Of a stretch of 64,000 bases of DNA, positions 1 through 19,788 are shown piece by piece; position 1 is the first letter of the stretch, and every line of letters starts with the position of its first letter. This DNA is from Ignavibacteriales bacterium. Lineage in GTDB: Bacteria; Bacteroidota; Ignavibacteria; UBA10030; UBA8401. Both the position numbers and the translations under genes were made by a program. Under the pieces are notes generated by a model, which made no database searches, was not told the DNA's origin, and was given only the letters and a program-made list of their open reading frames with translations. The stretch is from positions 11,950 through 75,949 of the forward strand of contig JBBINR010000003.1 in NCBI GenBank assembly GCA_037443785.1. The letters run 5' to 3'.

Positions 1-558
1 GTCCGCAACAAACACATCACCAACTTCAAGGCGAGCAGCATCACGTTCGACGTAGGGAAGAAATTTATCCTTCAGCGCTTTGTCACCTTCACGCATCCGA
101 GTCCACACGAGACGGTTCTGTTCGTAAAAGTCTGCAGCATATCTGCGATACGTCATATCGGATGATGAAACAGGAATGCCGTGCATCGACAATCTGTATT
201 TTGTGTGCGCAATGCATTTGCCGATGTCGAGCGCACGCGGGTCGAGAAGTAGATCGACAAAAACTTTCATTTCGATCTCGGACAATTTGCGCTGACTGAT
301 ATTTTTGTATTTATAGTTAGGTGCAAGCGCGTCAACATCGCCGCCTGTATCGGTCAATTGTTTTTTCCATCGCTCTGCAGTTTTGAATGAAACCGAACCA
401 AGAACTTTGAAAATGTCCGGCAGCAGCTTACCGAGATTATATGCGTCGATAAACATTTGCTTTGCCGGGAGCTTCAACGCTGCAGATTCGTACGACTTAC
501 TGTAATTGGCAAGAAAGTCCGACTTGGCAAGTGCAATATTTTTTTGTTTGTCGTTCAT
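1..558 (-). CDS. Hypothetical phage protein (3' end truncated by window edge)
   Basis: Open minus-strand frame starting at ATG 558-556 (MNDKQKNIALAKSDFLANYSK...). It lies downstream of the portal and morphogenesis genes. Confidence 0.45.
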   Translation of the reverse strand, partial: MNDKQKNIALAKSDFLANYSKSYESAALKLPAKQMFIDAYNLGKLLPDIFKVLGSVSFKTAERWKKQLTDTGGDVDALAPNYKYKNISQRKLSEIEMKVFVDLLLDPRALDIGKCIAHTKYRLSMHGIPVSSSDMTYRRYAADFYEQNRLVWTRMREGDKALKDKFLPYVERDAARLEVGDVFVAD

Positions 559-756
559 TTCATCGTTCCTTTTGTGATTCGTTTTCCGCTTGATCTAAAA
601 TTCGTTGATGCGTCAAGCGGTCGATTCTTTTCAGCAGATTTTTTTTATTGCAGAGAGGATTTCCTGTTTTGAAAATGTTCAATTGAGAAATCCGTGCTAT
701 CCTGTCGGGATGATGTGAAACGTCCTTCATTGTGTAAACCATAAAGCCTCCGATTG

Positions 757-1314
757 TTATTTTACAGTCTGTAATTTTGCAGCAAGTTCGTTTGCAACTT
801 CCTTCGTTACATCAGGCGTCATCTTTATTGCAAGTTGGTTCTTTTGTTCGTTCGACAATCCAAAAAATTTCCACAGCTTCCGGCTTCGACCCGCTCCGCT
901 GATATTCAGATAAAACGCTTTGTCGGAATTTTCTTTTGTCCAAAATCCAAGTATCACTCCGTTGTCTGTATAGTTGACAATCTTCATGTCGCGCAGCATC
1001 TTGCCGGTTGCTTCAAGAAAGTTGTTGATCATGTCAGGATAGACTTTCAATTTGAAGTCTGCATAGCCGCCAAGAATAATCATTCCAAGTTTCCCGGACT
1101 TCTTACTGTGAACGATGTCATACAATTTTCCTTCGCCAGATTTTCCGCCGAGCCGAGAAACAATTTTTTTGTTGTATGGCATAAAGAACGGCTTCGTGGA
1201 ATACTTGTATGCTTTGCCGTTCACATCAACGCCTTTGGCGATATTTTCTTCAATCATGCCGAGTGCAATCGTTCCGGCTTTCGTTAAAACTTTTTCAGAC
1301 AGCTTCAATTGCAT
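757..1314 (-). CDS. Hypothetical phage head-morphogenesis-region protein
   Basis: 185-aa ORF co-oriented with and downstream of the portal; no recognisable motif. Confidence 0.45.
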   Translation of the reverse strand: MQLKLSEKVLTKAGTIALGMIEENIAKGVDVNGKAYKYSTKPFFMPYNKKIVSRLGGKSGEGKLYDIVHSKKSGKLGMIILGGYADFKLKVYPDMINNFLEATGKMLRDMKIVNYTDNGVILGFWTKENSDKAFYLNISGAGRSRKLWKFFGLSNEQKNQLAIKMTPDVTKEVANELAAKLQTVK

Positions 1315-1499
1315 TTCTCCTGTTGTGCGAACGGCGCTTCAAATAATAAAATGGTTACAACAACTCTCCCTGTTGTGTTGCACCGTCCGCACGGTTTCGA
1401 TTTCGTTTCCGAGTCGTGACCTGACGTTCTTTCGGAATAGCGAATCATACCTTCACCTTTACAATCGCTGCAGACTTCGATGAAAGAAATTTTATTCAC
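1305..1499 (-). CDS. Small zinc-ribbon protein (CxxC...CxxC)
   Basis: 64 aa with CSDCKGEG ... CGRCNTTG. Overlaps the portal stop by 4 nt, i.e. translationally coupled. Confidence 0.4.
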   Translation of the reverse strand: MNKISFIEVCSDCKGEGMIRYSERTSGHDSETKSKPCGRCNTTGRVVVTILLFEAPFAQQEKCN

Positions 1500-2650
1500 G
1501 GTAACTCACTTGCATTGATCGGCGTAAACAGTTTGTCACCTTGCTGAGGCGGAGTGAATCCAGCCTTTTTATAAACTTCATCTTCACGCATCGGAAGAAA
1601 TTTGTGCAGCACATCGATTGCCGCTGCATTCTTTTCTATATCCTGTTCTTCGGCAATGTTGAATTCAAACTTTACCGGAAGGTCATCGATTGCTGCGTCG
1701 GATTTATAATTCAACTTGTAATCGATCAGCAGCAATTGTTTCATCAGTGCTTCAACGCGGTTCATGTCCGTATAAAAAATATCGGCACTGACAAGTTTTA
1801 AGATTTCGATTGCCGCACGGCTGCCGCCGTTGTTCGGAAGTTCCGACGTATTCGCCTGCCCTAACATGGCAATAGAAATTTCTGCCTTGCGTTCATCGTT
1901 GAAATCTTTGAACTGCGTTCCGCCGCCTGCAGCTGCGATCTGATTCAATTTGAATTCGATCATGTCGTCAGTAACGAGGTAGTTATTCTTTACCGCATTC
2001 GCTGCCGCTGTTTCCGCTGCCGCTTGATTGTCGTCGGAGGTCCCTTTATTGATGATCTGCAAAATGCCTTTCAACTTTTTCAAATAGTTCGCATTCTCAA
2101 GCACCATGTCCCACCGCAAGATTTCAGGAATCATAACCGTGCGAAGCACACCGCCGCGCGGCAATGTTGTATAGGCATCAAAAATATATTCCGCTTGAAA
2201 TTCTGTTCTGCTGATTGCAGTGACAGTTCTGTCGGTTTTATTTTTAATGAGGAAGTGTGTGTTGCTGTAATCGAATTCATCCGGTTCAAAAAATTTTTCG
2301 ACAGAAAGGATATTACTGTCTTTTGCAGAAATAGTTTGCAGTTTTACAAGGAACGCACCATACAAGACCGTATTCAATTGTTTTTGAAGTATCGCATTGA
2401 TAGCCGGAGACAATCGTGTCTTCATCTCTTCCGCTTTTTTCTGAAACGTTGCGTCGCTCACGGTGAGATTCCACGAGAATGATGACAGCGCGCTATTGCG
2501 AGTTGTTGCATGACCGCTGATGCGAGGATTGGCAAAAAGCTGTTTGAGATATTTGAACATCACTTCCGTTGACCGCACCTTGTCGTTCGGTTCATCGGCG
2601 TTCTTGCATGCTGCGAAAAATTGGTCAAGCGTTGGGTAGAGTCGAGCCAT
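1496..2650 (-). CDS. Phage portal protein, Mu gp29-like (DUF935)
   Basis: About 385 aa immediately downstream of TerL. Start MARLYPTLDQFF at 2650 avoids overlap with the terminase. Overall similarity pattern matches the DUF935 portal family. Confidence 0.75.
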   Translation of the reverse strand: MARLYPTLDQFFAACKNADEPNDKVRSTEVMFKYLKQLFANPRISGHATTRNSALSSFSWNLTVSDATFQKKAEEMKTRLSPAINAILQKQLNTVLYGAFLVKLQTISAKDSNILSVEKFFEPDEFDYSNTHFLIKNKTDRTVTAISRTEFQAEYIFDAYTTLPRGGVLRTVMIPEILRWDMVLENANYLKKLKGILQIINKGTSDDNQAAAETAAANAVKNNYLVTDDMIEFKLNQIAAAGGGTQFKDFNDERKAEISIAMLGQANTSELPNNGGSRAAIEILKLVSADIFYTDMNRVEALMKQLLLIDYKLNYKSDAAIDDLPVKFEFNIAEEQDIEKNAAAIDVLHKFLPMREDEVYKKAGFTPPQQGDKLFTPINASELP

Positions 2651-2661
2651 GATAAAATTCC

Positions 2662-4350
2662 TTAATTGGTATAGACATCGTTGACCGGAACAGGCGGCGT
2701 TGATTTGCGTCCCGTAATTTTCCGGTCGTGAATAAATTCGTGCGCACAAATAATTGAATCCGGAGCGTCATCTTTTTTGTTTAACTTCACACCGGTGAAA
2801 GAAAAAAACTGAGCAAGGAACTTTTCGCCTTCCGGTGTCTTCGCAAATCCGGCAGGAAAAAAAACTTTGTCAGCTGCATACGCGCTTTGAAAATTTTTTG
2901 CAAGCTCGTCAACATTGTATCTTTTATATTCGATGTGCGGGAATGGCAACTTCTTTATTAAGCACCAGTTCCGAACATTGTTTGTCCAGTTGCTCTCTTG
3001 GTTCACGTTGCCGTCGAATCCGATATTCTTTACGTCGTGCGCTTTGCGCATGCGGAACACTTCATCCAATAATTTGTTGCTGTCCGCAAACGATCTGCAT
3101 AACGCTTCGGTGATGAAATAAGAATCCGTTGAGACAGAATATTTATAGACCGGCATCGCTGTCGTATCACCTTTCGATTTTTTTGAGAGGTTCGGGTCAA
3201 CCCACAACACACCGCGTGCATCGTTCGGTATCGATGTATATTCGTGATAGTGATCGCGCGTGAAGAAATCGCCTTCCGGAGGAATTGGATTTTGTTGGAA
3301 GTTCGCCTGCCAGTCACTTCCAGATTTCGGCTTCAACATTTCCTTCAGTTCGTTCTCGCTCATTGCAGAATATTTTTTGAACCATAACGAGAAGCCGTCG
3401 TATTGTTCTAACCGTGACACAGAATCTTTACTGAAGCTGACAACTTTAGAAAGTGTGGTGAATGTTTCGCGGTCAATCCATGCTTTGAACGATGTCACAG
3501 TCCATGAACGTGCAAGAATGCCTTGCTCTTGTTCAAGCGATAAACGATGCAGCGCGCCGGCTGTTGTAAAGTCGTTGCCAAGAATTAAGAATGTGCCGCC
3601 ATCGGAAAGAGATTGGAACGCTTCGGAAATTTTATCGATGCGTAGCTGCACTGCGTCGTTGCTGAATGACGATTCAAGTGTTTCGATGTCATCACCGAGA
3701 AGGAATTGCGGCCTGCCGAACAAACGAGTGTAACCGCGTAACGAACGACCTTCTGAAAATGATGCGATGTATTTCCATTCGTTCAATGCAGAAATTTTCG
3801 TCGAAGCCGATTTCTTTTTCTTTTTTCCATCGTTCATAAAAGAAAAATCTGCTGTTGCACGGAATCGGCATTGATCTGAGTTAGCTTCGGCGAATTCAAT
3901 TTTGAAATCTTCGCGGATGCGTTCATTGTCGGCGAGCAGCATAATGCAATCGCGCAAAATGTTTGCGGACTTCAAAATCGTTTCTGCATACGTTCCGGCA
4001 ATTTTTATTTTACCGCACAGCAGCATCCATAACAGCGTTGTTTTTCCTTTTGCCGTCTTACCGTGTTTTCGAGGTCCGAAAATTGTGTGCACGCCGGCAA
4101 CCTGCGCAACTTCACCGATGTAACCGTGCAACTCGCACGGCGGCGCGTAACTTTCATACATCGACGGCGGAAAATAATATTTATCGAACGCTTCATGCGA
4201 TGCGAACGCTTCTCGCAATCTTTTTTCCCGCGCTTGCGGTGTTCGTTCTGCATCGGTGAATGGCTGTACCTGCGACAACATCGCTGCAAGTTCTGCGTTC
4301 GCTTCAAACTGCGGGAAGGTATGCTGTATGTGTGAAAAAGTATTTTCCAT
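2662..4350 (-). CDS. Phage terminase large subunit
   Basis: Walker A GPRKHGKTAKGKTT, Walker B-like LLGDDIE, and C-terminal nuclease-like acidic motifs (WVDPN..GDTTAM, GFDGN); 562 aa. Confidence 0.9.
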   Translation of the reverse strand: MENTFSHIQHTFPQFEANAELAAMLSQVQPFTDAERTPQAREKRLREAFASHEAFDKYYFPPSMYESYAPPCELHGYIGEVAQVAGVHTIFGPRKHGKTAKGKTTLLWMLLCGKIKIAGTYAETILKSANILRDCIMLLADNERIREDFKIEFAEANSDQCRFRATADFSFMNDGKKKKKSASTKISALNEWKYIASFSEGRSLRGYTRLFGRPQFLLGDDIETLESSFSNDAVQLRIDKISEAFQSLSDGGTFLILGNDFTTAGALHRLSLEQEQGILARSWTVTSFKAWIDRETFTTLSKVVSFSKDSVSRLEQYDGFSLWFKKYSAMSENELKEMLKPKSGSDWQANFQQNPIPPEGDFFTRDHYHEYTSIPNDARGVLWVDPNLSKKSKGDTTAMPVYKYSVSTDSYFITEALCRSFADSNKLLDEVFRMRKAHDVKNIGFDGNVNQESNWTNNVRNWCLIKKLPFPHIEYKRYNVDELAKNFQSAYAADKVFFPAGFAKTPEGEKFLAQFFSFTGVKLNKKDDAPDSIICAHEFIHDRKITGRKSTPPVPVNDVYTN

Positions 4351-4535
4351 TAGTCGTTCACCGGATTGTTTGAATCGAACTCATCGTCTGAAAAAATATT
4401 GTCAGTCTTGCGCTTCGGAATTTTTCCGCTGAGTTTTTCCTGCGGCTGTATAAACTGGCACTCGCATTGCGCAAGAGTCTTGTTGCATCGTTCACAAATT
4501 TTTGTAAAGTCAGTTTCAATTATTATTTCTTCCAT
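4350..4535 (-). CDS. Small Cys-rich phage protein (zinc-ribbon-like)
   Basis: MEEIIIETDFTKICERCNKTLAQCECQF. Its TAA overlaps the TerL ATG (TAATG). Confidence 0.4.
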   Translation of the reverse strand: MEEIIIETDFTKICERCNKTLAQCECQFIQPQEKLSGKIPKRKTDNIFSDDEFDSNNPVND

Positions 4536-4595
4536 GTTGACCTTTGATTGAATAGAGCCTGCTGCGTGCGCAAACATGCAGCAGGCGTTGCAACG

Positions 4596-4856
4596 TTACG
4601 CGAAACTACGACCGCCTTCTGCGACACCGCCCTCTCTAAAATGACTTACTTCCGGAAGCATTGCGTTGATCACTTGATGAGTAATATTTCGCAGTCCGGA
4701 ACAGATGATACGTTGATTGCGAAGTTCCTGTGTGCATGCCAGCAACAATAAGCCTTGATGTTCCGCAGATGTTTCCGCCGCGACAAGCTGCGCTTGAAGC
4801 ATCGTGAGTTCATCACGCAAAATTATTCGAGCGATTGCTTTCAAAATATTTTTCAT
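4596..4856 (-). CDS. Hypothetical phage protein
   Basis: 86-aa ORF in the co-directional early-gene string; its start overlaps the stop of the next gene. Confidence 0.4.
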   Translation of the reverse strand: MKNILKAIARIILRDELTMLQAQLVAAETSAEHQGLLLLACTQELRNQRIICSGLRNITHQVINAMLPEVSHFREGGVAEGGRSFA

Positions 4857-5119
4857 AGTGCGCCCTCCGATAAATATTTTTCCGGTATCTCTTCTTTGTG
4901 CAGCGCATAGTGCAAACGGATTGCATAGTCGATCATTGCAGTGAGCGATGAGAATGTTTCCACATCGTTACCATAGACAGTTCCGTTCAATATGAAACAC
5001 CAACCGCACAGCACATCGTCATACCAAAAATTTTCGATGAAAGGATATTGCTCTGCAAGTTCTTCGTACAGACGTTCGATGCTGATAAGAAGCGACTGAC
5101 GTTTCTCTTCGATGTTCAT
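4853..5119 (-). CDS. Hypothetical phage protein
   Basis: 88-aa ORF, 4-nt overlap coupling with the downstream gene. Confidence 0.4.
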   Translation of the reverse strand: MNIEEKRQSLLISIERLYEELAEQYPFIENFWYDDVLCGWCFILNGTVYGNDVETFSSLTAMIDYAIRLHYALHKEEIPEKYLSEGAL

Positions 5120-5282
5120 TTGCGTTGCCCTTCCATTTTACTGAATGCACGTTCAAGAATTGCTTTCGCTCGTGGGTTGTATGATTCTGCGAAGCGTGAC
5201 AGTTGATGCTTTGGAATAAAATCTTTTCCGTTATCAATTTTGCTTTGTTGCGGAACTTGCTGCATTGCCATTTTTTGATTCT

Positions 5283-5480
5283 TCATTTTTGTTCCTCCGA
5301 AGTATGTTGATGAAGTTCAGTTTCTTCTAATTCACCGTATGCAAAATTCAACGATTCAATGTCTTGCTCGGCAATTTGCAATAAGTAACCGCTGCTCAAT
5401 ACAACCGCATTGCCTTCAACGCGAACGATCTTTCTACCTATCAATGCTTCTTTGGCTCCATCGCAAAGTTTTGTTGCCAT
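5283..5480 (-). CDS. Hypothetical phage protein
   Basis: 65-aa ORF, co-oriented early gene. Confidence 0.3.
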   Translation of the reverse strand: MATKLCDGAKEALIGRKIVRVEGNAVVLSSGYLLQIAEQDIESLNFAYGELEETELHQHTSEEQK

Positions 5481-5512
5481 AAATATTTTCTCCGATTAGT
5501 TAGTGATGAAAA

Positions 5513-5917
5513 TTATTTTGAAAACTTACTTGCAGGGAAAATGTAAATTCCCTTTTTGTCAGAATATTGTTTCTCTGTTAAACCATATCTCAATTTCTCA
5601 TTCAAAAATTCAACAGCGTCTTGTTTCGAGTTGAACTTCTTTACATATCCGCGTTGCGTTAAAACAAATTCATAACCGTTGAGAGAAATTCCGTGCGGGT
5701 TCCGAGCGATAATAAATTTTTCTTTTGGCACTCGCGGAGTGATCAGACCTTGTTCGATGCAGAATTGTTTTAGTGCCGCAACTTTTTTCTTTGAGATGTA
5801 GTCGAATCGTTTGTTGATGAAGTTTGATACATCGGCGCGGGTAATTTCTTTGCCGGTTTTTGAAAAAACGAAATCTTTCAAATTTGCGTTATAAGCGATT
5901 TTCATTGTTTTTTCCAA
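5513..5917 (-). CDS. Hypothetical phage early protein
   Basis: 134-aa ORF directly downstream of the cro/ner-like gene. Confidence 0.45.
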   Translation of the reverse strand: MEKTMKIAYNANLKDFVFSKTGKEITRADVSNFINKRFDYISKKKVAALKQFCIEQGLITPRVPKEKFIIARNPHGISLNGYEFVLTQRGYVKKFNSKQDAVEFLNEKLRYGLTEKQYSDKKGIYIFPASKFSK

Positions 5918-5972: not shown

Positions 5973-6150
5973 TTACGCAGCCTTCTCGAACCGCTCGACC
6001 TCTTTTTTCATGATTTTGGCAATTCTCTTTCTATGCTTTAGTCCGGGGCGCTGTCCGGACAAAATCATGTGTGCGTAAACTTCGCTCACTCCGAGCCGCC
6101 TTCCGATCTCCGCAGAATTAAATAGCTTTGCAACGTTGTTGACTTTCATT
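5973..6150 (-). CDS. Cro/Ner-like HTH DNA-binding protein
   Basis: About 59 aa. The segment AEIGRRLGVSEVYAHMILSGQRPGLKHRKRIAKIM is helix-turn-helix-like. The gene is divergent from the cI-like repressor. Confidence 0.55.
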
Positions 6151-6171
6151 TAATTGTCTCCTATGTTTGTT

Positions 6172-6251
6172 TAGTGTTAAAAACGTTTATTACTCTAAAC
6201 CAATATAGTGAAACTCGCTACTTTTGTCAAGCAGAAAATAGTGATTATCGA
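6172..6251. promoter_or_regulatory. Candidate operator region of the prophage switch, with ATAGTGA-N3-TCG direct repeats
   Basis: TAGTG motif at 6172, 6206 and 6239, about 33 bp apart. Copies two and three share ATAGTGAnnnTCG. The region sits between divergent cro-like and cI-like genes. Confidence 0.35.
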
Positions 6252-6260
6252 AACTTTTTT

Positions 6261-6680: not shown

Positions 6681-6686
6681 CATACT

Positions 6687-7073
6687 ATGGAAGAAAAAAT
6701 AATTTATGAACACCGCGATATTAAAGTTTCAAATGTTCGCGCTGTTTTCGGCGATAAAACTTTTTCTATGTCGAATATAACTTCGGTGATGTTTATAAAA
6801 ATTCCGAAGGTAATACGGTTGTATGGTGTGACAATAATATTTTTTGCCATTACAATATACTACGTCTCGAAAGACAGCAGCGCAACATGGCAAATACCGA
6901 CCGCAATCTTTTTAGCTCTCATCGGCGCATTACTGATTATTTTTGATCGACAAAAATACGCAGTGAGAATTGGAACTGCAGGCGGTGAAATTAACGCGAT
7001 CATTTTGAAAAGCGAATCAGAAATAAAATCCATCGTTGATTCACTCAATGAAGCAATCATAAAGCGTGGCTAA
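6687..7073 (+). CDS. Small two-TM membrane protein co-transcribed with the repressor (candidate superinfection-exclusion or abortive-infection protein)
   Basis: Starts 7 nt after the repressor stop. Two hydrophobic helices (VIRLYGVTIIFFAITIYYV and AIFLALIGALLIIF) are flanked by soluble ends. Confidence 0.5.
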   Translation: MEEKIIYEHRDIKVSNVRAVFGDKTFSMSNITSVMFIKIPKVIRLYGVTIIFFAITIYYVSKDSSATWQIPTAIFLALIGALLIIFDRQKYAVRIGTAGGEINAIILKSESEIKSIVDSLNEAIIKRG

Positions 7074-7207: not shown

Positions 7208-7615
7208 TTATTGCTGCGTTGAATCGTACACAACATTGAATTCGACATACGCCGCCGCAAAGTCTGAGTAGTAACCGTCGAACTTCACCGGCTCCGCATT
7301 CTGCTGAATCATTACATCGGAAATTTCATTTACGATCTTTTCAACCTTCTCGCATAACTCAATCGCATCGAGCGCGCTGTAGATTGGATTGTCTTCACCG
7401 CCTGCGCAGGCAAAGAATGTGAACTTCGATTTTCTGATCACACTTCCTTTTTGTGAAGTTGTCCCGGGTTCCGGGTCAATATAAATCCACACGCACGGTG
7501 TCATACTCGGCATCGTACCGAATTTTCCAAAGTCAACATCAACCTTTGCAGCGGTCATCAATGCATGCTGCTGCAGTGCCGTTCGTATCGCGCTTGCCGC
7601 TTCTCGCAGTATCAT
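7208..7615 (-). CDS. Hypothetical phage protein (possible head-tail joining protein)
   Basis: 135 aa. It is the last gene of a 3-gene minus-strand cassette whose members overlap by 4 nt. Confidence 0.45.
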   Translation of the reverse strand: MILREAASAIRTALQQHALMTAAKVDVDFGKFGTMPSMTPCVWIYIDPEPGTTSQKGSVIRKSKFTFFACAGGEDNPIYSALDAIELCEKVEKIVNEISDVMIQQNAEPVKFDGYYSDFAAAYVEFNVVYDSTQQ

Positions 7616-8112
7616 CGTTTTTTCTCCATCTTGATTTTCGCAATTTCCTCATTGTAAATTTTTATCACGTCATCATTGGTTGCACCCGGTGCATAACGCC
7701 GGATGATGCGCGCGATGATTTCAGCGTCTGCTCGGTTCATGTGCGCTTCAAGTTCAACGCTTTGCAGGAACTGCCGAATGCGCGACATCTTGTAAAGAAT
7801 GCTGACCCGCGAATTCAATTTCATTTTTGGATTCATCTCAAGCATTCCGGCACAGAGCGAGAGCTGCGATTTCATCAAGCCGAGATCGTCATTTTCATCA
7901 CGCATCATTTGTGCTGCGTTTAACTGTCCCTTCGATGTGTTTTTCAGGAGTTCGGATTTTTCAGCGTGCTTCTGCAGCGCGTAACGCGCTTGGTGAATCT
8001 TCACGTGAAATTTTTTAGAAAGGTCCTGCAGCGTCGCTTCAGGATGATTGCTTTTCCAAATGGATATTTTACTCTGCAGTTGATCGGAAATAAAAATTCT
8101 TTTCTTATTCAT
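7612..8112 (-). CDS. Hypothetical phage protein with HTH-like N-terminus
   Basis: Start at MNKKRIFISDQ (ATG at 8112), 5 nt after the upstream stop. The N-terminal region HPEATLQDLSKKFHVKIHQARYAL is HTH-like. Confidence 0.45.
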   Translation of the reverse strand: MNKKRIFISDQLQSKISIWKSNHPEATLQDLSKKFHVKIHQARYALQKHAEKSELLKNTSKGQLNAAQMMRDENDDLGLMKSQLSLCAGMLEMNPKMKLNSRVSILYKMSRIRQFLQSVELEAHMNRADAEIIARIIRRYAPGATNDDVIKIYNEEIAKIKMEKKR

Positions 8113-8563
8113 TCTCGTAGAGTCCTCCCATCGTTCCAACTTTCGCCGGAGTTGTTGATGTTGAACCGCCTGCATGTTGCGCAAGAGTTTTCATTGCATT
8201 ATCATAATTCTTGGTGATGCGAGAATTATATTCCGGCGAGGTTGCTTCTAATTTTACGCTTGCAAGATATTCAAGAATCCATGCATACGGCTGTTGCATC
8301 CAATCCGGCGCTGTCGTAAACGTTCCGCACTTATCAATAATCATCGTCTCAGTATTTGCAGCGAACTTTCCAAAGTTCGTTTCATCGGCAAGAACTTTTG
8401 CGGCAGACTTGCTGAGCAGTTCTTTGATGTCGTTGTAGGTATAGAGCATGACGTCCTTTCTAAAATGATAATGCAAACATACCGCACGCAGAAAAAAAAA
8501 GTCGGGTATATGCGGATATACTCTATAATAATTTTCCCGCGTGATTAAATTTGCATCGTTCAT
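8105..8563 (-). CDS. Hypothetical phage protein
   Basis: 152-aa ORF, first gene of the divergent cassette. Confidence 0.45.
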   Translation of the reverse strand: MNDANLITRENYYRVYPHIPDFFFLRAVCLHYHFRKDVMLYTYNDIKELLSKSAAKVLADETNFGKFAANTETMIIDKCGTFTTAPDWMQQPYAWILEYLASVKLEATSPEYNSRITKNYDNAMKTLAQHAGGSTSTTPAKVGTMGGLYENE

Positions 8564-8593
8564 TTAGCAACCACATACACAGGAGAAAATTTT

Positions 8594-10450: not shown

Positions 10451-10471
10451 TTATTTTTTGAAGGAGTAATC

Positions 10472-10927: not shown

Positions 10928-11004
10928 AAATTCAAACACCCCAACAGAGAAAATAGCCGTGTCCGGTGCATCGGCGCGGCTCTTGAGTTTAACAGGAGAA
11001 CTCG

Positions 11005-11373: not shown

Positions 11374-11636
11374 CAGGCGATGCAAACGGCGAATCGGTTA
11401 TTGAACAACCGATTGAAGAATCACTGAGAGAGATCGTAAATTTTTGTGCTAATGGAATTTTTACCGAGTGGGAAAAATGTTGGAATGAACGAAGCGTCGG
11501 TGATCTGCTTGCGTTCTACATTGAACAGAACCAATTCATCAAAGAATCATTCTCGCATGTAACATCAGGCGGGAAAAAAGAATTCAAGGAATTACTCATC
11601 GACCTTTTTGAAGTGCTTATACGACGCAGATTTTAA
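11005..11636 (+). CDS. Frameshift-extended chaperone isoform (GT-like), predicted
   Basis: Fusion of the 11005 frame with the -1 frame 11316-11636 (…AGDANGESVIEQPIEES…LIRRRF). Confidence 0.35.
11316..11322 (+). promoter_or_regulatory. Candidate -1 programmed ribosomal frameshift slippery site (T TTT TTT)
   Basis: A run of 7 T (X XXY YYZ) in the zero frame, 50 nt before the chaperone stop. The -1 frame is open from 11286 to the TAA at 11634-11636, two nt before the tape-measure ATG. Confidence 0.45.
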
Positions 11637-11639
11637 TTC

Positions 11640-13973
11640 ATGGAAACGATAAAAATAAAAATAGACATCGACGGCACGCAAGTCAATGGAACACTTGCGC
11701 TGACAACGGATAATTTGAAACGGCTTGTGCAGCAATCCGATTCACTTTCGTCTTCCGGAAAATCTGCGTTCAAAAGCTACAGAGATAATATCGCCAACAT
11801 CGGCTTTGCAATTGACGGCGCTCGAAGAATATTTGATGTCATCAATGGAACACTCGGCGACAGCGTTCGCGCGTATCAAGAATCTGAAAATGCTTCAACG
11901 AAATTGACACAGGCGTTGAAGTCGCAAGGTATTTACAGCGAGATACTTATTGATGACTTGAAAAAGTTTGCTGCAGAGCGTCAACGTCTTACCGGAATTG
12001 ATGATGATGCGATCGTTTCCATTATGGGACAGCTCACAGCGATGGGTTTACAGGGGAAGGCGTTGAAAGATGCGGTTGTCGCCGTTCAAGATTTAAGCAC
12101 GTTGATGGACGGCGACATGCAAGGTGCTGTTCGCGTTATTGCCGATGCGTTCGACGGCAACGCCGGAATGTTGAAACGATACATAAAAGGTTTAGATGAA
12201 GCGGACATCAAAGAGCGTGGAACGATCTCAATCATTGAGCAGCTGACAAAAGCTGTCGGCGGACAAGCGGAGGCGATGGGAAATACCGGAGCCGGTGCAA
12301 TTAAAAAATTTGAAGCTGACTTAGGCGATGCAAAAGAATCTGTCGGCGAAATGATTTCACTCGCACTTATTCCGCTTGTGAATGTTGTTGATTCAATGGC
12401 ACGTGCATTTAACGGCCTTGAACCTCCGGTAAAGAATACTGCGATTGCGATTGGCTTTGTTGCCGCCGCTGCATACGCTCTTCAATCGGTCGGCATTATT
12501 GCATTCTTAGGCAAAGTTACAGTTGCCGTAAAAGGTATTTCGTTTGCGTGGACTGGATTAAGCGCTGCAATTGCGATTACCAATGCTCTTATCGGTGGTG
12601 TTGCCATTGCCGCATTATCCGTTTTCGGATTGCTTATTGAAAAGTTTTATCTCGACTGGAAATTGAAACAGAAAGAGATTGAACACATTGCAAGTTCATC
12701 TGCAGCGATGACTCAGGAAACAATCGATAAAATCAATAAGCTGCCGTCGATAAAACTCAAAATTCAAAGCCTTGATTTTGAGATTAAGGAATCGAAGGCA
12801 CGGCTTCAGGAACTTTACGACTATGCAGAAAAACTTCGTGCCGATAGTGCGAGCGATCAAGACATTGCAAAAGCCGATGCAGCGCGAGATGCAGAAGTTG
12901 AGCGATTGAAGCGATACGAAGATACAAAGACATCGATCATTACCGATTCTGAAAAGAAGCGCAAGGCAAATGCCGGAGTGATTGCTACTGAACTTGAAGA
13001 GCTTCGTGTTAAAACGATGCAGGATGGTTACGCAAAGCACAAAGCACAAGCTGAACTGGAATATGCTGAGGCTCTTAAAAAACTTAATGAGCGTTTGAAG
13101 AAAGAAGAAATCCTGCAGGAAGACTATACAAAGTTTCTTGCGCTCGAACAAAAGAAACGTGATGACATCGTCGCACCGCCGCTCAAGAAAGTAAAAATAA
13201 AATCGACTGCCGATGCCGAAGCTGAGGAGACCGAGAGAAACAAAAAAGCACTCGACAAACGCGTGAAGGATACTGGCGGCGCGTTAAAAAAAATTGATGA
13301 AGCGAAACTCGACGCACTTGATAACAGTGCCGCTATCGACAAAAAAAATGCTGAAGACGATGATGCAAATAAGGAAGCGCAGCAGAAGGCAACGGAACAA
13401 AACATCCTTGCTGCAACTCAGCAATATGATACGAGCAAATCGTTTGCTGAAAACATGAAAGATATATCGCGCGCGAACATTAAACGCATCATCGCCGAAG
13501 CTGTTGCAACGCAACTGGCGAAAGTCATTTCGATGATTCCCTTTCCGCTTAATATCGTTGCTGCACCTGCTGCCGGTATTGCCGTTCAAGCGATGATTGA
13601 AAAGATCGTACCGAAATTTGCTATTGGCGGATTGATCGGCGGACAGAGACACGCCCAAGGCGGAACACTCATTGAAGCTGAAGAGGGTGAATTCATTATG
13701 AACCGTGTCGTTACTCAAAAGCATTTCAATTTTCTCTCAGCTCTCAACGCAGGTAAAATTACGCTGCCAAAATTTTCCACCGGCGGCGTTGTTGGAAGTG
13801 TTGTTGCGACGGTATCGAATGCGGGAACTGATTTGAAAAGAGAATTTAAGACTCTCACAAAAGCTATCATTAACAATCCGCCGATTGTTAAAAATAGTTT
13901 TGATACCGACTGGACGCGGATGCGCAAGGGTGAACGAAAACTTCAACGCGTGAAAGCAGCATACGCATTATGA
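11640..13973 (+). CDS. Tail tape measure protein
   Basis: 777 aa with long coiled-coil and charged repeats, central hydrophobic segments, and C-terminal GG-rich region. Position after G/GT. Confidence 0.85.
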   Translation: METIKIKIDIDGTQVNGTLALTTDNLKRLVQQSDSLSSSGKSAFKSYRDNIANIGFAIDGARRIFDVINGTLGDSVRAYQESENASTKLTQALKSQGIYSEILIDDLKKFAAERQRLTGIDDDAIVSIMGQLTAMGLQGKALKDAVVAVQDLSTLMDGDMQGAVRVIADAFDGNAGMLKRYIKGLDEADIKERGTISIIEQLTKAVGGQAEAMGNTGAGAIKKFEADLGDAKESVGEMISLALIPLVNVVDSMARAFNGLEPPVKNTAIAIGFVAAAAYALQSVGIIAFLGKVTVAVKGISFAWTGLSAAIAITNALIGGVAIAALSVFGLLIEKFYLDWKLKQKEIEHIASSSAAMTQETIDKINKLPSIKLKIQSLDFEIKESKARLQELYDYAEKLRADSASDQDIAKADAARDAEVERLKRYEDTKTSIITDSEKKRKANAGVIATELEELRVKTMQDGYAKHKAQAELEYAEALKKLNERLKKEEILQEDYTKFLALEQKKRDDIVAPPLKKVKIKSTADAEAEETERNKKALDKRVKDTGGALKKIDEAKLDALDNSAAIDKKNAEDDDANKEAQQKATEQNILAATQQYDTSKSFAENMKDISRANIKRIIAEAVATQLAKVISMIPFPLNIVAAPAAGIAVQAMIEKIVPKFAIGGLIGGQRHAQGGTLIEAEEGEFIMNRVVTQKHFNFLSALNAGKITLPKFSTGGVVGSVVATVSNAGTDLKREFKTLTKAIINNPPIVKNSFDTDWTRMRKGERKLQRVKAAYAL

Positions 13974-15094
13974 AATCGGTTCTTGCCTATAGCAAAACGC
14001 ACACATTTCAACTCTTCGTGAAGGAAGCGAAAGTAACGCGTCGTTATGAAGAAAAGGATTATGATTTTGTGGCGAGCGATCTGCAGCTTGATCTGACGGA
14101 CGGAAAAGAGTTGTATGATCTTGTTAACGCCGGCGAAGAAATATTTATCGCAATCAAAGATGGTGACGTGACAAAGTTTTACGGTACAATTCAATTTGAA
14201 GGGTCCGGTTACAATCCCGAAACAGAAATTTATTCGTTCACCGCGCTTCATATTTCTAAAAAAGTTTTTGGTTTGCTGAAAGACGCACTACATAATACAC
14301 AATGGTATTCCGACATCGAAATCATCCAAGATGTGAGTCTTGAATTTGTTCGATTCAATATGGCGCTCTATGATGCCGGTTTCGCGCCATATGCCAACGA
14401 CCAAAAATATACGATGCGAGATAGATTAATCGATATAGCAAAACAATATCGGTTTGTCATGGGAGTGTTGGATGATTTATCTGCAATCGGAAAATATCAA
14501 TTGACGTTTCAAAAGAAAGCCGATCTAAAATCTATTGTACATACCGGTTATGATGAACTCATCTCCGAGTATAATGAAGAAGATTGCAACGCTGAATATG
14601 AATATGTTTTATTCCCCTGCCGTATTAATGAAGCTGGCGAAATCTTTTCAGCGTATGCGATTCACTCATTGAAAGAAACAAAAGTGATTGTGACGAGCAG
14701 TGATAATTTTGAACCGCGAGATTATCATGGTGTCAGAATGGAATTTATCAAGGTCGGTGATAAGCTGAATATCCCTGATAATTGTTTAGACTTGAGAGTT
14801 CCATCTGAAGTATATGGTGACGTTGTGAAAGAGAAGCATCCGTTCATCGATCTGCCTATGTTCACATTTATTTTTCTCACCGACGAGTGGACTGAAACGC
14901 CTGAGGCATATTGTTTGCGTGAATTTCAAACAGCAATTTCACCATATAAAGAAATCACAACTTTATTTTCAGAAATGCTTCCGGTAAATCCGTGCGAGAC
15001 AATTAATATCGTCGGTGGAAACAGCACAATTCACGAGATCGAAGATGATCACGTTAATGAAACGACAAAAACTATTTCAAGGAAATATTTGTGA
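13970..15094 (+). CDS. Distal tail protein (putative)
   Basis: 374 aa, 4-nt overlap with the tape measure stop. Confidence 0.45.
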   Translation: MKSVLAYSKTHTFQLFVKEAKVTRRYEEKDYDFVASDLQLDLTDGKELYDLVNAGEEIFIAIKDGDVTKFYGTIQFEGSGYNPETEIYSFTALHISKKVFGLLKDALHNTQWYSDIEIIQDVSLEFVRFNMALYDAGFAPYANDQKYTMRDRLIDIAKQYRFVMGVLDDLSAIGKYQLTFQKKADLKSIVHTGYDELISEYNEEDCNAEYEYVLFPCRINEAGEIFSAYAIHSLKETKVIVTSSDNFEPRDYHGVRMEFIKVGDKLNIPDNCLDLRVPSEVYGDVVKEKHPFIDLPMFTFIFLTDEWTETPEAYCLREFQTAISPYKEITTLFSEMLPVNPCETINIVGGNSTIHEIEDDHVNETTKTISRKYL

Positions 15095-15564
15095 CTCCAA
15101 AAGTTGTTTACACTCTTAATGGTGTTGAGAAAACGGTTCTGCTGCTGCCATCAGATTTTACATTGATGTCGCAACGCTGGGAAAAGGATTATGTTGAATA
15201 TAAAAATCCATTTACCGGAGACATGAAGCGAAAAAATCGCGGCTATTATTATACAGCGACAATACAATATGAAGGTGTATTTTATGATTTGATGAACACG
15301 ACGTATCGAGATTTGTTCAATGTGAAAATTTCCGACATGAAGTTTTTCCCGAACATCGATTCACAAGAGCACTACGACGTTGATACGAATGACACACTTG
15401 AACATGATGACAATGACGTGGCGATGGCGTATGAAAATTTCCAATTAGTTTTCACTTCAAAGAAACGCTATGAGTCTCCGTTGAATTATCCGGTCGGTTA
15501 TTGGGGAGCGCGGCGAACGACATTTACAGACATCGGCAGCACAACATTTGATTCATATATTTAG
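15091..15564 (+). CDS. Hypothetical tail protein
   Basis: 157 aa, translationally coupled. Confidence 0.45.
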   Translation: MTPKVVYTLNGVEKTVLLLPSDFTLMSQRWEKDYVEYKNPFTGDMKRKNRGYYYTATIQYEGVFYDLMNTTYRDLFNVKISDMKFFPNIDSQEHYDVDTNDTLEHDDNDVAMAYENFQLVFTSKKRYESPLNYPVGYWGARRTTFTDIGSTTFDSYI

Positions 15565-15578
15565 AAAGAAATAATTCT

Positions 15579-16586
15579 ATGCCAACCAATATACAGACGG
15601 TTGCAGCATCCGATACATTGGACGCAGGACGACAAAAATTTAATGCGAACGACGAAGCATTGAAAGCCACTGCAGATGCTAATACCGCTCAGCAAGCGCA
15701 GCATGTTACAGATGGTCATCCGACGTTGTATTACACAAGGGCTCAGATCGATGCGGCACAAACGACGCAGGATAATGCGCTTGTGACTCACAAGGCAAGC
15801 GGCGATCATGATGCACGGTATTTATCATCATCGCTTCTTGCCAATTTGATGCGATTAACACTCGATCAAATTATCGACGGGATAAAAACATTCGTGCAAA
15901 ATATAAAGGTGAAAAAAGCGCAGCCGGCAATTGAACTGCAGCACTCCGATGGGACACCAATTGGTAACTTCTCCGGAGACGTTGTTGCTGGAAAGACTGT
16001 TGTGCGTACGCAAATTGTTGAGGCTGGTAATAATGTAAAGACGATATGCGAAGTGAATGAAGGTGGAACAATAGTAGATTTCCCAAACCATGATGTGGGT
16101 GCAAAAGGATTAAAGCTCGCTACTGAGGAATATGTTTCAAGCAAATTTATCAACGGACAAGTTAGTGGTTCGTTCTCCGTGCAAGAACAGTTACATGCTG
16201 CGAATTATTCAATCGCCGATCCAATTTATTCGAAGATTGAAGGAAATAGAAAATTCAATGGATTGCCGAATTGTAAATTGATTCGTGTCTGCATCCATAG
16301 AGTTATTACCGGCAGTATTTACGTCGGTGAATCATTCGAGTTGAATTTTGATTTTACATTGAACGTAAGCCAGAATCAATGTTGTTTTGTCTATGTCGCA
16401 CGGGGTATTGACTATGGTGGAGGAACTTATAAACCGCAATTAAAAATCGTCCGCCGCACGTACACAATCAATGCTGTTGTTGATGAAGAGATTGTATCGA
16501 CGTATGGCGGATTTGGCAGCGGAAGCACCGTGAGCAGCAGTGCAACCGATGATTGGTTTGTCACTTTACTATTTCAGATGGCTTAA
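15579..16586 (+). CDS. Tail fibre protein
   Basis: 335 aa. N-terminal motif GHPTLYYTRAQIDAAQ...HKASGDHDARYL is shared with the next gene. Gly/Ser-rich C-terminus. Confidence 0.55.
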   Translation: MPTNIQTVAASDTLDAGRQKFNANDEALKATADANTAQQAQHVTDGHPTLYYTRAQIDAAQTTQDNALVTHKASGDHDARYLSSSLLANLMRLTLDQIIDGIKTFVQNIKVKKAQPAIELQHSDGTPIGNFSGDVVAGKTVVRTQIVEAGNNVKTICEVNEGGTIVDFPNHDVGAKGLKLATEEYVSSKFINGQVSGSFSVQEQLHAANYSIADPIYSKIEGNRKFNGLPNCKLIRVCIHRVITGSIYVGESFELNFDFTLNVSQNQCCFVYVARGIDYGGGTYKPQLKIVRRTYTINAVVDEEIVSTYGGFGSGSTVSSSATDDWFVTLLFQMA

Positions 16587-16948
16587 TGATTGAAGAGATA
16601 AAACATACCGATTCCGATTTTCATCGTTTGCGTCAAGCAATCAATAAAAACGATAAAGCTCTGCAGAAGGATGTTGACGAGCTGCGAAACGCCGATGACA
16701 AACACGCGGCGACCGGTCATCCTGACTTGTATGATATGAATGGAGCGGCGGCTGCTGTGCAGATAAGTCTTAATTCACATAAATCTGGCGGAGATCACGA
16801 TACACATAATGATGTATTATACGCCGCAAAAAATAAATTCGATCAATTCACAAATTTTCTTTTGACCGGCGACTATGATGTGAGCACGGCGTTATTTGAT
16901 ATTGATGTTGCTCGGTTACCAATTGCAATTGATATGGGAGTTATCTGA
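16586..16948 (+). CDS. Tail fibre-associated protein sharing the N-terminal GHPxLY/SGDHD module
   Basis: TAATG overlap with the upstream gene. Motif GHPDLYDMNGAAAAV...HKSGGDHDTHNDVLYA. Confidence 0.45.
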   Translation: MIEEIKHTDSDFHRLRQAINKNDKALQKDVDELRNADDKHAATGHPDLYDMNGAAAAVQISLNSHKSGGDHDTHNDVLYAAKNKFDQFTNFLLTGDYDVSTALFDIDVARLPIAIDMGVI

Positions 16949-18528
16949 TGGGAAAATTACAAACATTGCGCGGTTCTGTTCTACCAGCGTTTGATGCGAA
17001 TCTTTATCCTGAGAGTGTGCAATTTACTGTTATCGTTGGCGGGGTTGTTACCGGTGTATACATCAGCAATGGAGTTTCGTGGGGTGATAATTTAATTTTA
17101 GTGAAAAGAATTAACGATAAAATTGTTCCAACAAACTCAAGGATATATGAACAAAATTATGGAGCGTTTGAGACAGGAATAAGAATAGTCTCATCTCAGC
17201 AGAATGTATTGCAAGGTTTGTTCGATGCCGTCGAGCCGGATGGAGTTGTTATTGATAACGACGCGGCTTTTACCACCGACCTTCTCGGTAAGACAATAAT
17301 GCAATTAACGTCAAACGATAATACTAATACTGATGGCACCGTCACGCGAGCTCCCAATTTTCCCAACGGGAATTGGGAACACATATCTGCAAGGATTATA
17401 GAGGTTATTAGCTCTACAAAACTTCGTCTTTCAAACGACATATTTAGACCGGGCAAATCATATTATTATGCAATTGATAATCATACCGGTAAAATAATTG
17501 AATCGCTAAAAGGGTTTATTACTACGGACACCGCAAGCAAGCTGATTGATAATAATGCAGTTTTTACAGGAGCCGTCGTTGGAAACTATGTTCTTGTTTA
17601 TAATGGTTTTTACTGGTACAGGTCAATTATTACCGCACTTGATAGTGCAACACAACTATCGCTCGACGTTGATATACCAACGATCGTGGGTCGGCAATAC
17701 ATTATCATCATATCGGACGATGCTTACAGATTCATACAATCAGCGGCTGACGATGTTTCAAATAATTCTTTTGGTTACAATCCTTTTGTCGTGGCTATTA
17801 AAAATGGCGTTTATCGAGAGTCCGTATTTGTTGGTACGCGAAGCTCGGAATACAATCACGTTGGGTCCGATCATATAATTTTCACGGGGGATAATCGCCA
17901 AAATTCATCCGTTGTAATAAAAGGCTCATTTGCAACGACTCCAACAACCATTTCTTCTACATTTGGTCTTCGTTGCAGTGGCTCTCTTCGGATTGTCTCT
18001 ATCGGTATTAGTTATAATTATACAATCGCCGCATTGTCATCCTCATATTCGGGGAGTATAGTCATTGAAAAATCAACAATCTCAAATGTAATTTCCGCCG
18101 CCGTTGGTGTCGGTTTAATTAAAATGGGTGATTGTATATTCAACAATGTGTCGTTAAGCATATTTTCCACTCAATCACAAGGTGGTGAGGGTTATTTTTA
18201 TGGTTCAATCGAAATACAGACTAACATGAATCTTGTCAGCCACTACTCACAAGGTGTTATAGCCGTTTTTGTAGACGGCGCGACAATCTCCGGAGCTGGC
18301 ACGCTAAGCGGAGGAGATCCTTTTGTACCGTATATAGGAGCAAAAGTGAGTGGAACATCGTTGCCAAAATTAACAGACGGTTCGAGTGTATGGGAACGAT
18401 ATTTTCAAACAACAAAGACTGCTGCAACAGCAACGGCAGGCGTTGGCGCTTTGCCGGCAACACCAGAAGGATTTATTATTGTTTACGTTAACGGAGCACA
18501 GAAAAAAATACCTTATTACAACGCATAG
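16948..18528 (+). CDS. Tailspike or receptor-binding protein with predicted right-handed beta-helix
   Basis: 526 aa with periodic short hydrophobic and Asn/Ser/Thr-rich repeats (VFVGTRSSEYNHVGSDHIIFTGDNRQNSSVVIKGS...ISNVISAAVGVGLIKMGDCIFNNVSLSIF). Confidence 0.5.
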   Translation: MGKLQTLRGSVLPAFDANLYPESVQFTVIVGGVVTGVYISNGVSWGDNLILVKRINDKIVPTNSRIYEQNYGAFETGIRIVSSQQNVLQGLFDAVEPDGVVIDNDAAFTTDLLGKTIMQLTSNDNTNTDGTVTRAPNFPNGNWEHISARIIEVISSTKLRLSNDIFRPGKSYYYAIDNHTGKIIESLKGFITTDTASKLIDNNAVFTGAVVGNYVLVYNGFYWYRSIITALDSATQLSLDVDIPTIVGRQYIIIISDDAYRFIQSAADDVSNNSFGYNPFVVAIKNGVYRESVFVGTRSSEYNHVGSDHIIFTGDNRQNSSVVIKGSFATTPTTISSTFGLRCSGSLRIVSIGISYNYTIAALSSSYSGSIVIEKSTISNVISAAVGVGLIKMGDCIFNNVSLSIFSTQSQGGEGYFYGSIEIQTNMNLVSHYSQGVIAVFVDGATISGAGTLSGGDPFVPYIGAKVSGTSLPKLTDGSSVWERYFQTTKTAATATAGVGALPATPEGFIIVYVNGAQKKIPYYNA

Positions 18529-18536
18529 GAGAATTT

Positions 18537-18815
18537 ATGAAACTAAATATTATACCAGTAGCAATAGATCTGCAAATGGCAGATATAATCGAAATACAAA
18601 TAAATGCGCTGCGGCTGAATGACAGCGCAGAGATTCACGTCGATTTTTTTAAGGATAAGGGATTGATTATTATTAACGGTGCTAGTGTACCAAATTATGA
18701 GCGCATTGCGCAGAAACAATTTGTCATCGCCGGTGCAGACTATCAAGCATGGAACGACGACCAATATGTGATTGATTATGTTATGAATAAATTTGGATTG
18801 ACGCTTGCTCAATGA
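18537..18815 (+). CDS. Hypothetical tail protein
   Basis: 92-aa ORF, coupled to the next gene. Confidence 0.4.
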   Translation: MKLNIIPVAIDLQMADIIEIQINALRLNDSAEIHVDFFKDKGLIIINGASVPNYERIAQKQFVIAGADYQAWNDDQYVIDYVMNKFGLTLAQ

Positions 18816-19693
18816 TTATTCAAGAGAATTATATTGAGATTGACTTTGATGCGGTGAAGAAATTTCGTTCACTCACTATAACATCCACGGCTGAAATTAC
18901 ACTCAGCAAGTTAATGCTAAAGAATCAGAACACCGGAACGTATGAGAGCGTTGATGCTGCTATTTATGTTGATGGCAATGAGGCGCACCTCCCTTTTTAT
19001 TTTCACACTGGCACGATTGAGATTATTCCCGATCTGCTCGGAAGCGGATTGATGATTGAGGGTGTCGGGTTAAATAATATTAGCAATGTTGTTGTTGATG
19101 ATCTACCGGTTCAGGACGTTGATTATTCCGGTGTTGTCGCCGGTGAAGCAAAGGAACGCGCTGACGGTGATGAAGCCTTGCTATCGGCGATTAATGCAGA
19201 AGCTACAGCGCGGTCAGTTGCGGATATAAATGAAGCGTCTGCTCGTGCTGCGGCGGATTCTACCCTTCAATCCGCTATCGATGCAAAGATTAATTACTGC
19301 CAACTTCCGATGGCATTTGAAAGCGGGTTCGGTGCGAGTGTAACGCGCTATGTTACTCCGGCATATTATAATGTTTCTTCGGTGAGCGGTGATATGCGTT
19401 ATCCTGTTGGTGACCGTGATATTACAATTCATGCTTTCACAATTTTAGGAAGACCAGCAACGTCGCCGGCACAGAATTATACGCACACATTTACTTTGCG
19501 AGTGAACGGTGTTGATACTGCAATGTCCGGGACAATTACAGTAACGCCGGCAGGTGGAATTGGTTATTATGAATTGACGGTAACTACCGGTGCACCCATT
19601 ACTGTTGCAGCTGGTTCATGGATAGATATTAAATGTGTCATCGCTGGTAATGGATTTATTAAGTTCAGCGGTAATATTTTGATAGGGATTTAA
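18812..19693 (+). CDS. Tail fibre or collar protein
   Basis: 293 aa with an Ala-rich coiled segment (EATARSVADINEASARAAADSTLQSAIDAKI). Last phage gene. Confidence 0.45.
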   Translation: MIIQENYIEIDFDAVKKFRSLTITSTAEITLSKLMLKNQNTGTYESVDAAIYVDGNEAHLPFYFHTGTIEIIPDLLGSGLMIEGVGLNNISNVVVDDLPVQDVDYSGVVAGEAKERADGDEALLSAINAEATARSVADINEASARAAADSTLQSAIDAKINYCQLPMAFESGFGASVTRYVTPAYYNVSSVSGDMRYPVGDRDITIHAFTILGRPATSPAQNYTHTFTLRVNGVDTAMSGTITVTPAGGIGYYELTVTTGAPITVAAGSWIDIKCVIAGNGFIKFSGNILIGI

Positions 19694-19788
19694 AGAGGGT
19701 TTGAATGATTACCCAAAATGATTTAGGAATAAAAAAAAATCTTAAAGCTGACAAATTAGCAGAGAAAAAAATAATGGGAAAATGCTAT

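Follow-up and report, generated by a model that had tools for sequence, protein, structure and literature searches.

A probable Mu/B3-type transposable siphophage with divided morphogenesis genes in an Ignavibacteriales bacterium

The left part of a 64,000-nt stretch of contig JBBINR010000003.1 from an Ignavibacteriales bacterium (assembly GCA_037443785.1, positions 11,950-75,949, forward strand; this whole stretch is called the window) holds a prophage in which the large terminase subunit (TerL) and portal genes are read leftward and the genes from scaffold to fibres rightward, with regulators in between. An initial annotation of this sequence recognised the split into divergent morphogenesis modules, which open reading frames (ORFs) and family matches substantiate, and, seeing no transposase genes, suggested a mosaic that might represent an undescribed phage lineage. 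The locus thus raises the questions of whether the two arms belong to one phage, and how an element without an integrase would have entered the chromosome. The evidence set out below favours, with a probability of roughly 0.85, a single Mu/B3-type transposable siphophage prophage, of which window positions 1 to about 19835 form the right-hand three quarters, the left quarter lying outside the window. What the locus represents is an unusual gene order in a known virus type, the Mu/B3 transposable phages, and not a new type.

A transposition module across the window edge

The leftward gene that is cut by the window edge encodes the N-terminus of a MuA-type DDE transposase, its translation ending in '...RLEVGDVFVAD' at position 1. 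Over these 186 aa it is 66% identical to a 556-aa protein with Pfam Mu-transpos_C in a relative represented by the IMG/VR contig L001 (treated, together with L013 and L016, as one relative phage). The remainder of the gene is found on the Logan contig L008, retrieved by exact-protein look-up of TerL. This contig matches window 4505..1 at 100% identity and extends leftward past the window edge by another 6560 bp of phage genes, bringing the phage sequence readable in total to 26.4 kb. The 560-aa transposase on L008 carries PF09299 Mu-transpos_C and the family-invariant residues D186 (the last transposase codon inside the window), N254 (within a DNG motif) and E299, and in tblastn it is 22-28% identical to the transposases of D3112/B3-like Pseudomonas phages, Ralstonia phages, HS6 and phiRTG5. 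The leftward continuation on L008 encodes, all in the same direction, the transposase, a MazG-like protein, a MuB-like ATPase, DUF3164, GemA (PF06252), small ORFs, a zinc-finger ORF and a MuF-like protein. The MuB-like ATPase (L008 6589-7482, 297 aa, AAA_22) lies 0.96 kb downstream of the transposase gene tnpA, and its L001 orthologue also matches TniB. Gam is present in the relative L001 and was not found in the window phage; there is no match to Mor/C among the phage genes read, an 85-aa zinc-finger ORF occupying the position of mor in Mu. Between the transposase and the MuB-like ATPase (L008 5899-6562) lie genes for a predicted 111-aa lipoprotein (signal ending GFVAC) and the 103-aa MazG-like pyrophosphatase.

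The portal is of the Mu gp29 type (PF06074: E 7.8e-24, 85 bits, cut-off 23.9), and the Mu-like ancestry that the initial annotation had read from it is upheld by this match together with the MuA-type transposase. The same annotation's report that transposase A/B genes are absent was in error, because the window edge cuts the element, with the N-terminus of the transposase inside the window and its remainder and the MuB-like ATPase on L008. The lesson for annotation is that a window edge hid the transposase and so produced an apparent 'integrase-less mosaic'. The left flank contains neither of the two things named at the outset as signs of separate elements, a further prophage or a junction with host DNA close to position 1; it carries the transposition module of the same element, in an adjacency repeated in two other phages. 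As had been annotated, neither an integrase nor a lysis cassette was recognised in the window by the family scans, and no integrase domain occurs in any phage ORF of the window or L008. Insertion would occur by transposition, so that no integrase is expected, and no att site either.

At the right end, a tandem pair of repeats, TCCTCATTTAAAGTGACCTCA at 19789 and TCCTCATTTAAAGTGATCGCA at 19811, has a period of 22 bp, and both copies end in CA. Their spacing and the CA terminus are those expected of Mu-type transposase-binding sites, and the repeats are candidates for such sites. The end of the phage is placed at 19831 or 19835, with the terminal CA at 19830-31 or 19834-35, and not at 19700 as had been annotated. 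According to the TG-CA terminus rule for transposable phages (PMC8705779), the left terminus would start with TG and, on the transposable reading, bear inverted copies of TCCTCATTTAAAGTGA. The right-end 15-mer has no other copy in the phage part of the window (at up to 2 mismatches), the motif is absent from L008 too, and the double repeat has no match in IMG/VR. The Logan contig L009, from the same sample and covering the amylase side, starts exactly at 19836, which gives weak support for a phage end there, the same assembly also breaking inside a fibre gene. The last fibre gene stops at 19693, 138 bp before the terminus (19694-19831); in L016 the fibres are followed (18003-20178) by an SLT-like gene, a lipoprotein gene (spanin-like) and a D12-class Dam methylase gene. 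A comparison of L013 (early end) with L016 (tail side) for terminal inverted repeats returned only noise, L016 stopping short of its tail-side end (Dam gene to contig edge). Host genes begin at 19976 with an alpha-amylase, followed by ilvD, mrdA, rodA, qNor and a heptosyltransferase.

The other end of the element is approached through the MuF-like gene, the last of the left arm. Its full-length form, P0003 (368 aa), combines a MuF-like N-terminal region with a C-terminal CdiA_C toxin domain. Matches of the family to MuF models are weak, one of 11 members matching PF04233 Phage_Mu_F (0.0075) and two of 11 matching PF06152 Phage_min_cap2 (0.045), all under the gathering score; a C..H...C.H motif is invariant in the family. 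The genes of L013 and L059 pass from the MuF-like gene and one small ORF directly to host genes, and the MuF side is therefore a true phage end in this layout. A small ORF after the MuF-like gene is found in relatives, that of L013 (79 aa) being one that could encode an immunity protein. Such a pairing resembles the MuF polymorphic toxins of temperate phages (PMC5576092), in which a MuF-like N-terminus is likewise joined to a toxin domain (here CdiA_C) and a small neighbouring ORF is typical of toxin-immunity pairs. By contrast with those systems, in which muf genes normally lie immediately downstream of the portal gene (PMC5576092), and apart from the weakness of the MuF match, the window-phage gene closes the early arm some 8 kb away from the portal, the distance in type A relatives (defined below) being within 1-2 kb, in convergent orientation. 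Both L008 and L001 break inside the MuF-like gene, which a polymorphic C-terminus confusing assemblers would explain.

Near the phage-host junction at the early-side ends of two type C relatives (defined below), the motif AATTTCTCAAnCTGTGTG occurs two to three times (L013 11507-11525, L059 1757-1860); these repeats, which differ from the right-end motif of the window phage, are likely the transposase-binding sites of L013 and L059. The host flank beyond this end in L013 (11700-12200) is GC-rich with many short palindromes, like repetitive extragenic palindromic (REP)-like host repeats.

Gene order among the relatives

Scans based on TerL returned four IMG/VR loci, three genome loci (one of them in a Melioribacteraceae metagenome-assembled genome) and 42 metagenome loci. 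Both genes can be seen in 31 related loci, and in each of these the capsid gene is upstream of the TerL gene and on the other strand; the divided morphogenesis genes are thus characteristic of the clade and not an accident of mosaicism. The suggestion of a mosaic of undescribed lineage holds in part: no close phage relative has been deposited (among 50,697 deposited phage records, tblastn gave no match to TerL and one weak match to the portal), but the divergent layout is no one-off mosaic, being shared by the whole clade. TerL is so divergent that only 167 representative relatives were detected among 1.84 billion proteins. A metagenome scan with the L016 fibre protein gave no match.

Three arrangements of a constant gene set can be distinguished. 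In type A (26 loci), tail, capsid and scaffold genes in one direction are followed by g152, g135, g190, TerL, portal and g185 in the other, then by MuF, further early genes, GemA, MuB, tnpA and ner in the first direction again, and finally by the divergent repressor gene. The genes of the putative small terminase subunit (TerS), TerL, portal and g185 form here a single unit, divergent from the capsid genes and convergent with the early region, and type A reads as the Mu order with an inverted packaging block. Its member L011, from an IMG isolate genome, keeps the order repressor, then ner-A-B-...-gemA opposite it. The intermediate type B (L032) has its early region co-directional with the packaging block, the switch lying in between. 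Type C, comprising the window phage, L001/L013 and L061, resembles type B and has in addition the switch and early ORFs inserted between the g152-g190-g135 block and TerL. Both junctions of this arrangement, namely portal-g185-small ORF-tnpA-MuB-...-GemA-MuF and the succession g135, repressor, ner-small ORFs-TerL, are found also in L001/L013/L016 (TerL 68% identical to that of the window phage) and in L061 (g190 72% identical). Judged by gene order, the position of the switch inside the packaging operon is specific to the window phage and these two relatives.

One account of type C, offered tentatively as a possibility that we would not bet on, is that the switch and early ORFs came to be placed inside an ancestral late packaging operon, cutting the putative terS off from terL. 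TerL and portal would now be promoter-proximal in an early Ner-transposase operon, and their early transcription, if it occurs, would be an undescribed coupling of packaging to transposition; the three layouts would then reflect repeated switching between Mu-type and B3-type orders by block inversion within one TerL lineage. The arrangements A, B and C around a constant gene set provide a natural series for studying gene order in the Mu early-to-late programme.

Some loci depart from these patterns. L006 (1607-4139) has the portal gene upstream of TerL on the same strand, and L024 (10001-13444) has g152 and g135 homologues between TerL and portal. In L011 (1700-3286), an insertion sequence (IS) element encoding a 528-aa DDE transposase on the opposite strand separates the ner region from the transposase gene of the phage, and may disable the early operon.

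Known systems and competing explanations

The closest parallels are with transposable phages of several kinds. In the organisation of Pseudomonas phage B3, two arms are read oppositely with the regulators between them and gemA near one end (PMC8705779). The window phage, together with L008, has this two-arm layout, its transposase, ATPase and gam/SEE-like small genes sharing the arm that points away from the regulators, with gemA near the genome end, and the tail module, for a long tail without a sheath, at the other end. By contrast with B3, in which all head and tail genes lie in the late arm, TerL, portal, g185 and the MuF-like gene are placed upstream or downstream of the transposase in the early arm, and the putative TerS block forms a third unit, an extra three-gene leftward block between the regulators and the capsid arm. 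Transposase identity to the B3/D3112-like phages is only 22-28%, and the structural proteins have no detectable B3 relatives. Escherichia phage Mu shares with the window phage a MuA-type transposase with Mu-transpos_C and an adjoining MuB-like ATPase, GemA, a portal of the gp29 type, a Ner-like gene divergent from a repressor gene (in the window phage a candidate), and the CA terminus. Unlike the window phage, Mu has a contractile tail, transcribes every gene but c in the same direction, and keeps terminase, portal, F, G, protease and capsid in a single block. The window phage belongs to a clade in which the packaging block is inverted throughout, and no lysis or protease gene, no Mor/C and no Gam was recognised in it. 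The divergence of the packaging block from the capsid-tail genes confirms that the layout is unlike that of canonical Mu, as had been annotated. The TG1-group prophages of Leptospira, compared by layout and not by homology, have a separated TerS-TerL-portal block (PMC8705779), and in this displacement resemble the window phage; they differ from it in their contractile tails (sheath and baseplate) and spirochaete host, and TerL and portal are displaced here without the putative TerS, which remains in the late block, a split that is not described in PMC8705779. The clade adds to the transposable phages an uncultured and little-studied group, mostly metagenomic and apparently environmental.

Several points weigh against a single transposable phage. 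The left end, with any terminal inverted repeats and 5-6-bp target duplication, lies outside the sequence read. The repressor and TerS assignments are positional, and a single long leftward transcript is proposed because the genes of the leftward unit are closely packed (they overlap or lie no more than about 55 bp apart) and lack a convincing terminator. The estimated size of about 27-28 kb compares with 37-39 kb quoted for transposable phages (PMC8705779). Among the 26.4 kb of phage sequence read, no gene for an endolysin, holin, spanin or capsid protease could be recognised, and the window copy may be lysis-defective or carry lysis genes that escape recognition.

The last two points would also suit an element that is transposable by descent and survives as a defective, lysis-deficient remnant unable to make or release virions, an explanation to which the mere 138 bp between the last fibre gene and the terminus, where L016 has lysis genes and a Dam methylase, adds some weight. 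Such a remnant is nevertheless improbable, if by no means negligibly so, since all recognisable genes are intact and tightly packed, the frameshift signal of the tail chaperone gene is preserved, and the end repeats are exact; the many unannotated ORFs could encode novel lysis proteins, and small genomes are found clade-wide, the provirus contig of L003 measuring 33 kb including a 1.6-kb IS. That two elements lie side by side or nested, a Mu-like one providing the TerL-portal-transposase arm and an unrelated siphophage the capsid-tail arm, would accord with the opposite transcription of the arms, with a candidate repressor that lacks a detectable relative, and with the ability of transposable phages such as Mu to insert almost anywhere. 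It is a very improbable reading, because both arms and all junctions are kept together in L001/L013 and L061, the capsid gene accompanies this TerL clade wherever both are visible, the right-end motif is not repeated inside the window or L008, and the capsid-tail arm has, in the family scans, no terminase or portal of its own. Hardly any credence can be given to a temperate mosaic phage of new lineage that does not transpose and has its integrase and att sites upstream of the window; the lack of an integrase in the window and the departure from the Mu layout would be compatible with it, but the upstream sequence encodes the MuA-type transposase, MuB-like ATPase, DUF3164 and GemA and no integrase, and in L013 and L059 host genes start right after the MuF-like gene region, again with no integrase. 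A single Mu/B3-type transposable siphophage prophage is the explanation retained in what follows.

Regulatory switch, structural genes and hosts

The features of the prophage are collected in Table 1. Several gene starts in the window are taken from, or agree with, Logan gene calls (including those of L060) and, in the g152 block, P0005.

Table 1. Prophage features, in window coordinates except where an L008 position is given
Feature	Position	Strand	Basis or remark
MuF-like protein, first 224 residues	L008 10393-11064	left-arm direction	about 6.5 kb left of window position 1
MuA-type DDE transposase, N-terminal 186 codons	558..1	-	gene crosses left window edge; full length 560 aa on L008
60-aa ORF directly upstream of transposase	560..742	-	called on L008; 30% identical to L001 positional equivalent
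g185, conserved protein	757..1314	-	no Pfam/PHROG match
64-aa CxxCxGxG zinc-finger ORF, uncertain gene	1305..1499	-	between portal and g185
Portal, Mu gp29 type, 384 aa	1496..2650	-	PF06074 Portal_Mu, PHROG 113; L008 gene call agrees
TerL, large terminase subunit, 562 aa	2662..4350	-	PHROG 38, E 9.6e-41
Six small ORFs (75, 86, 88, 56, 65, 130 aa)	4350..5905	-	tightly packed, Ner-like gene to TerL
Ner/Cro-like helix-turn-helix (HTH) regulator, 58 aa	5973..6149	-	first gene of leftward operon; PHROG 1468 transcriptional repressor, E 1.3e-4
Switch region	6150..6260	.	leftward promoter and two 24-nt direct repeats
Candidate immunity repressor, 139 aa	6261..6680	+	divergent from Ner-like gene; start agrees with Logan gene call
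DUF6232 membrane protein	6687..7073	+	PF19744 E 1.9e-14, PHROG 23009; two predicted transmembrane (TM) segments
Three-gene block g152-g190-g135	8449..7208	-	between candidate repressor/DUF6232 and rightward arm
g135	7615..7208	-	start from Logan calls/P0005
g190, 166 aa, putative TerS	8112..7612	-	start from Logan calls/P0005
g152, 114 aa	8449..8105	-	start from Logan calls/P0005
Divergent intergenic region	8450..8593	.	between g152 block and scaffold; presumed late promoters
Scaffold-like protein	8594-9121	+	PHROG 328, C-terminal part only, E 2.7e-5
Major head protein	9155-10120	+	PHROG 212, E 1e-12
g92, one TM segment	within 10172..11633	+	ORF between capsid and tape measure
Candidate tail tube, 151 aa	10472-10927	+	position only; no family or PDB match
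G of G/GT-type chaperone pair, 122 aa	11005-11373	+	frames and sequence
Tape measure, 777 aa	11640-13973	+	PHROG 27166, 1293, 1533; three TM-like segments
Distal tail, tail-spike and fibre genes (374, 157, 335, ~120, 526, 92, 293 aa)	13970..19693	+	ORFs
Right end of prophage	19789..19835	+	two tandem 21-22-bp repeats TCCTCATTTAAAGTGAnCnCA at 19789 and 19811

The cro/ner-like gene that had been placed at the head of the leftward arm stands as annotated, on its PHROG match and on 39% identity to the gene of L011 whose place, flanked by an XRE-type repressor gene and tnpA, is that of ner in Mu; identity to its L001 equivalent is 49%, and its start is preceded, at a distance of 8 nt, by a GGAG Shine-Dalgarno sequence. 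The best promoter match in the 11.7 kb scanned, agreeing at 11 of 12 positions, is a leftward one of sigma-70-like type, TTGACA-17-TATATT at 6230..6202; it is flanked and overlapped by a pair of 24-nt direct repeats (6202-6225 and 6235-6258) that are candidate operators. Promoter and terminator counts as a whole are no higher than in shuffled sequence. The gene divergent from the Ner-like one is a candidate for the immunity repressor by position alone. The 'cI-like' label given to it keeps the support of this divergent position, the analogues at the equivalent place in L061, L032 and L011 being XRE-type HTH proteins; against it, the 139-aa protein has no family or PDB match and no similarity to the XRE repressors of L061 and L011, and its AlphaFold2 (AF2) single-sequence model has a pLDDT (predicted local distance difference test score) of 49. 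The following DUF6232 gene, co-oriented with the repressor gene, is probably an accessory gene expressed in lysogeny, and its product may have an exclusion or accessory role.

From this layout a regulatory scheme can be proposed. In the lysogen, the repressor would bind the 24-nt repeats overlapping the leftward promoter and shut it. Induction would yield one long leftward transcript encoding the Ner-like protein, early ORFs, TerL, portal, g185, transposase, MuB-like ATPase, GemA and MuF, beside which internal late promoters before TerL could act, and the transposase and MuB-like ATPase would replicate the genome by transposition from the end-binding repeats. The divergent region 8450-8593 would drive the putative TerS block in one direction and the capsid-tail arm in the other; the promoter scan demonstrated none in this region.

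TerL and the Mu gp29-type portal are leftward genes, as had been annotated. The last of the six small ORFs upstream overlaps the TerL start codon; none of the six has a match in family or PHROG scans, and two have homologues at the equivalent place in L001. Downstream of the portal, the 64-aa zinc-finger ORF fills the 180-bp gap before g185; its DnaJ_CXXCXGXG match (E 6.8e-6) is under the gathering score, and it is absent in L001 and uncalled on L008. The g185 gene itself follows the portal gene, in the same orientation, in every related locus that extends far enough, and its product is probably a virion-morphogenesis or neck protein, as judged from position and by eye from the sequence pattern. 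Exact look-ups of g185 and g293 gave no match, differing start codons being the probable cause.

The rightward arm had been described as starting beyond the repressor, but the leftward g152-g190-g135 block intervenes. In 23 loci, g190 is found upstream of TerL on the same strand every time, directly so in type A, and it has an N-terminal HTH-like region; because of these two features it is probably TerS, a positional call. A PDB profile search with g190 returned only HTH regulators and PHROGs only weak HTH matches, and its AF2 model (pLDDT 67) has no fold match at E <= 0.001.

Within the rightward arm, the annotated scaffold, capsid, G/GT chaperone, tape measure and fibres are all recovered, through PHROG matches, the -1 frameshift and fibre-like genes up to 19693; the tail tube is a candidate from its place in the gene order. 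The -1 frame of the G/GT pair is open at 11301-11633, with the slippery run AAATTTTTTT at 11314-11323 (T7 run 11317-11323). Only three small genes fit between capsid and tape measure, leaving no room for a sheath gene, and the siphovirus-like tail without a sheath is thus sustained. PDB sequence searches of the tube, capsid, portal and transposase gave nothing useful. The distal tail genes have partial homology to L016 tail genes and no other family match, except for a weak beta-helix (pectinesterase) match of the 526-aa protein. Scans of the window for Rfam families and tRNAs gave no match.

As to hosts, the clade is mostly metagenomic, with one relative in the Melioribacteraceae genome mentioned above. 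The host of the window phage is judged by its gene content to be Gram-negative, and another relative adjoins a host protein with a Por_Secre_tail (type IX secretion) sorting domain.

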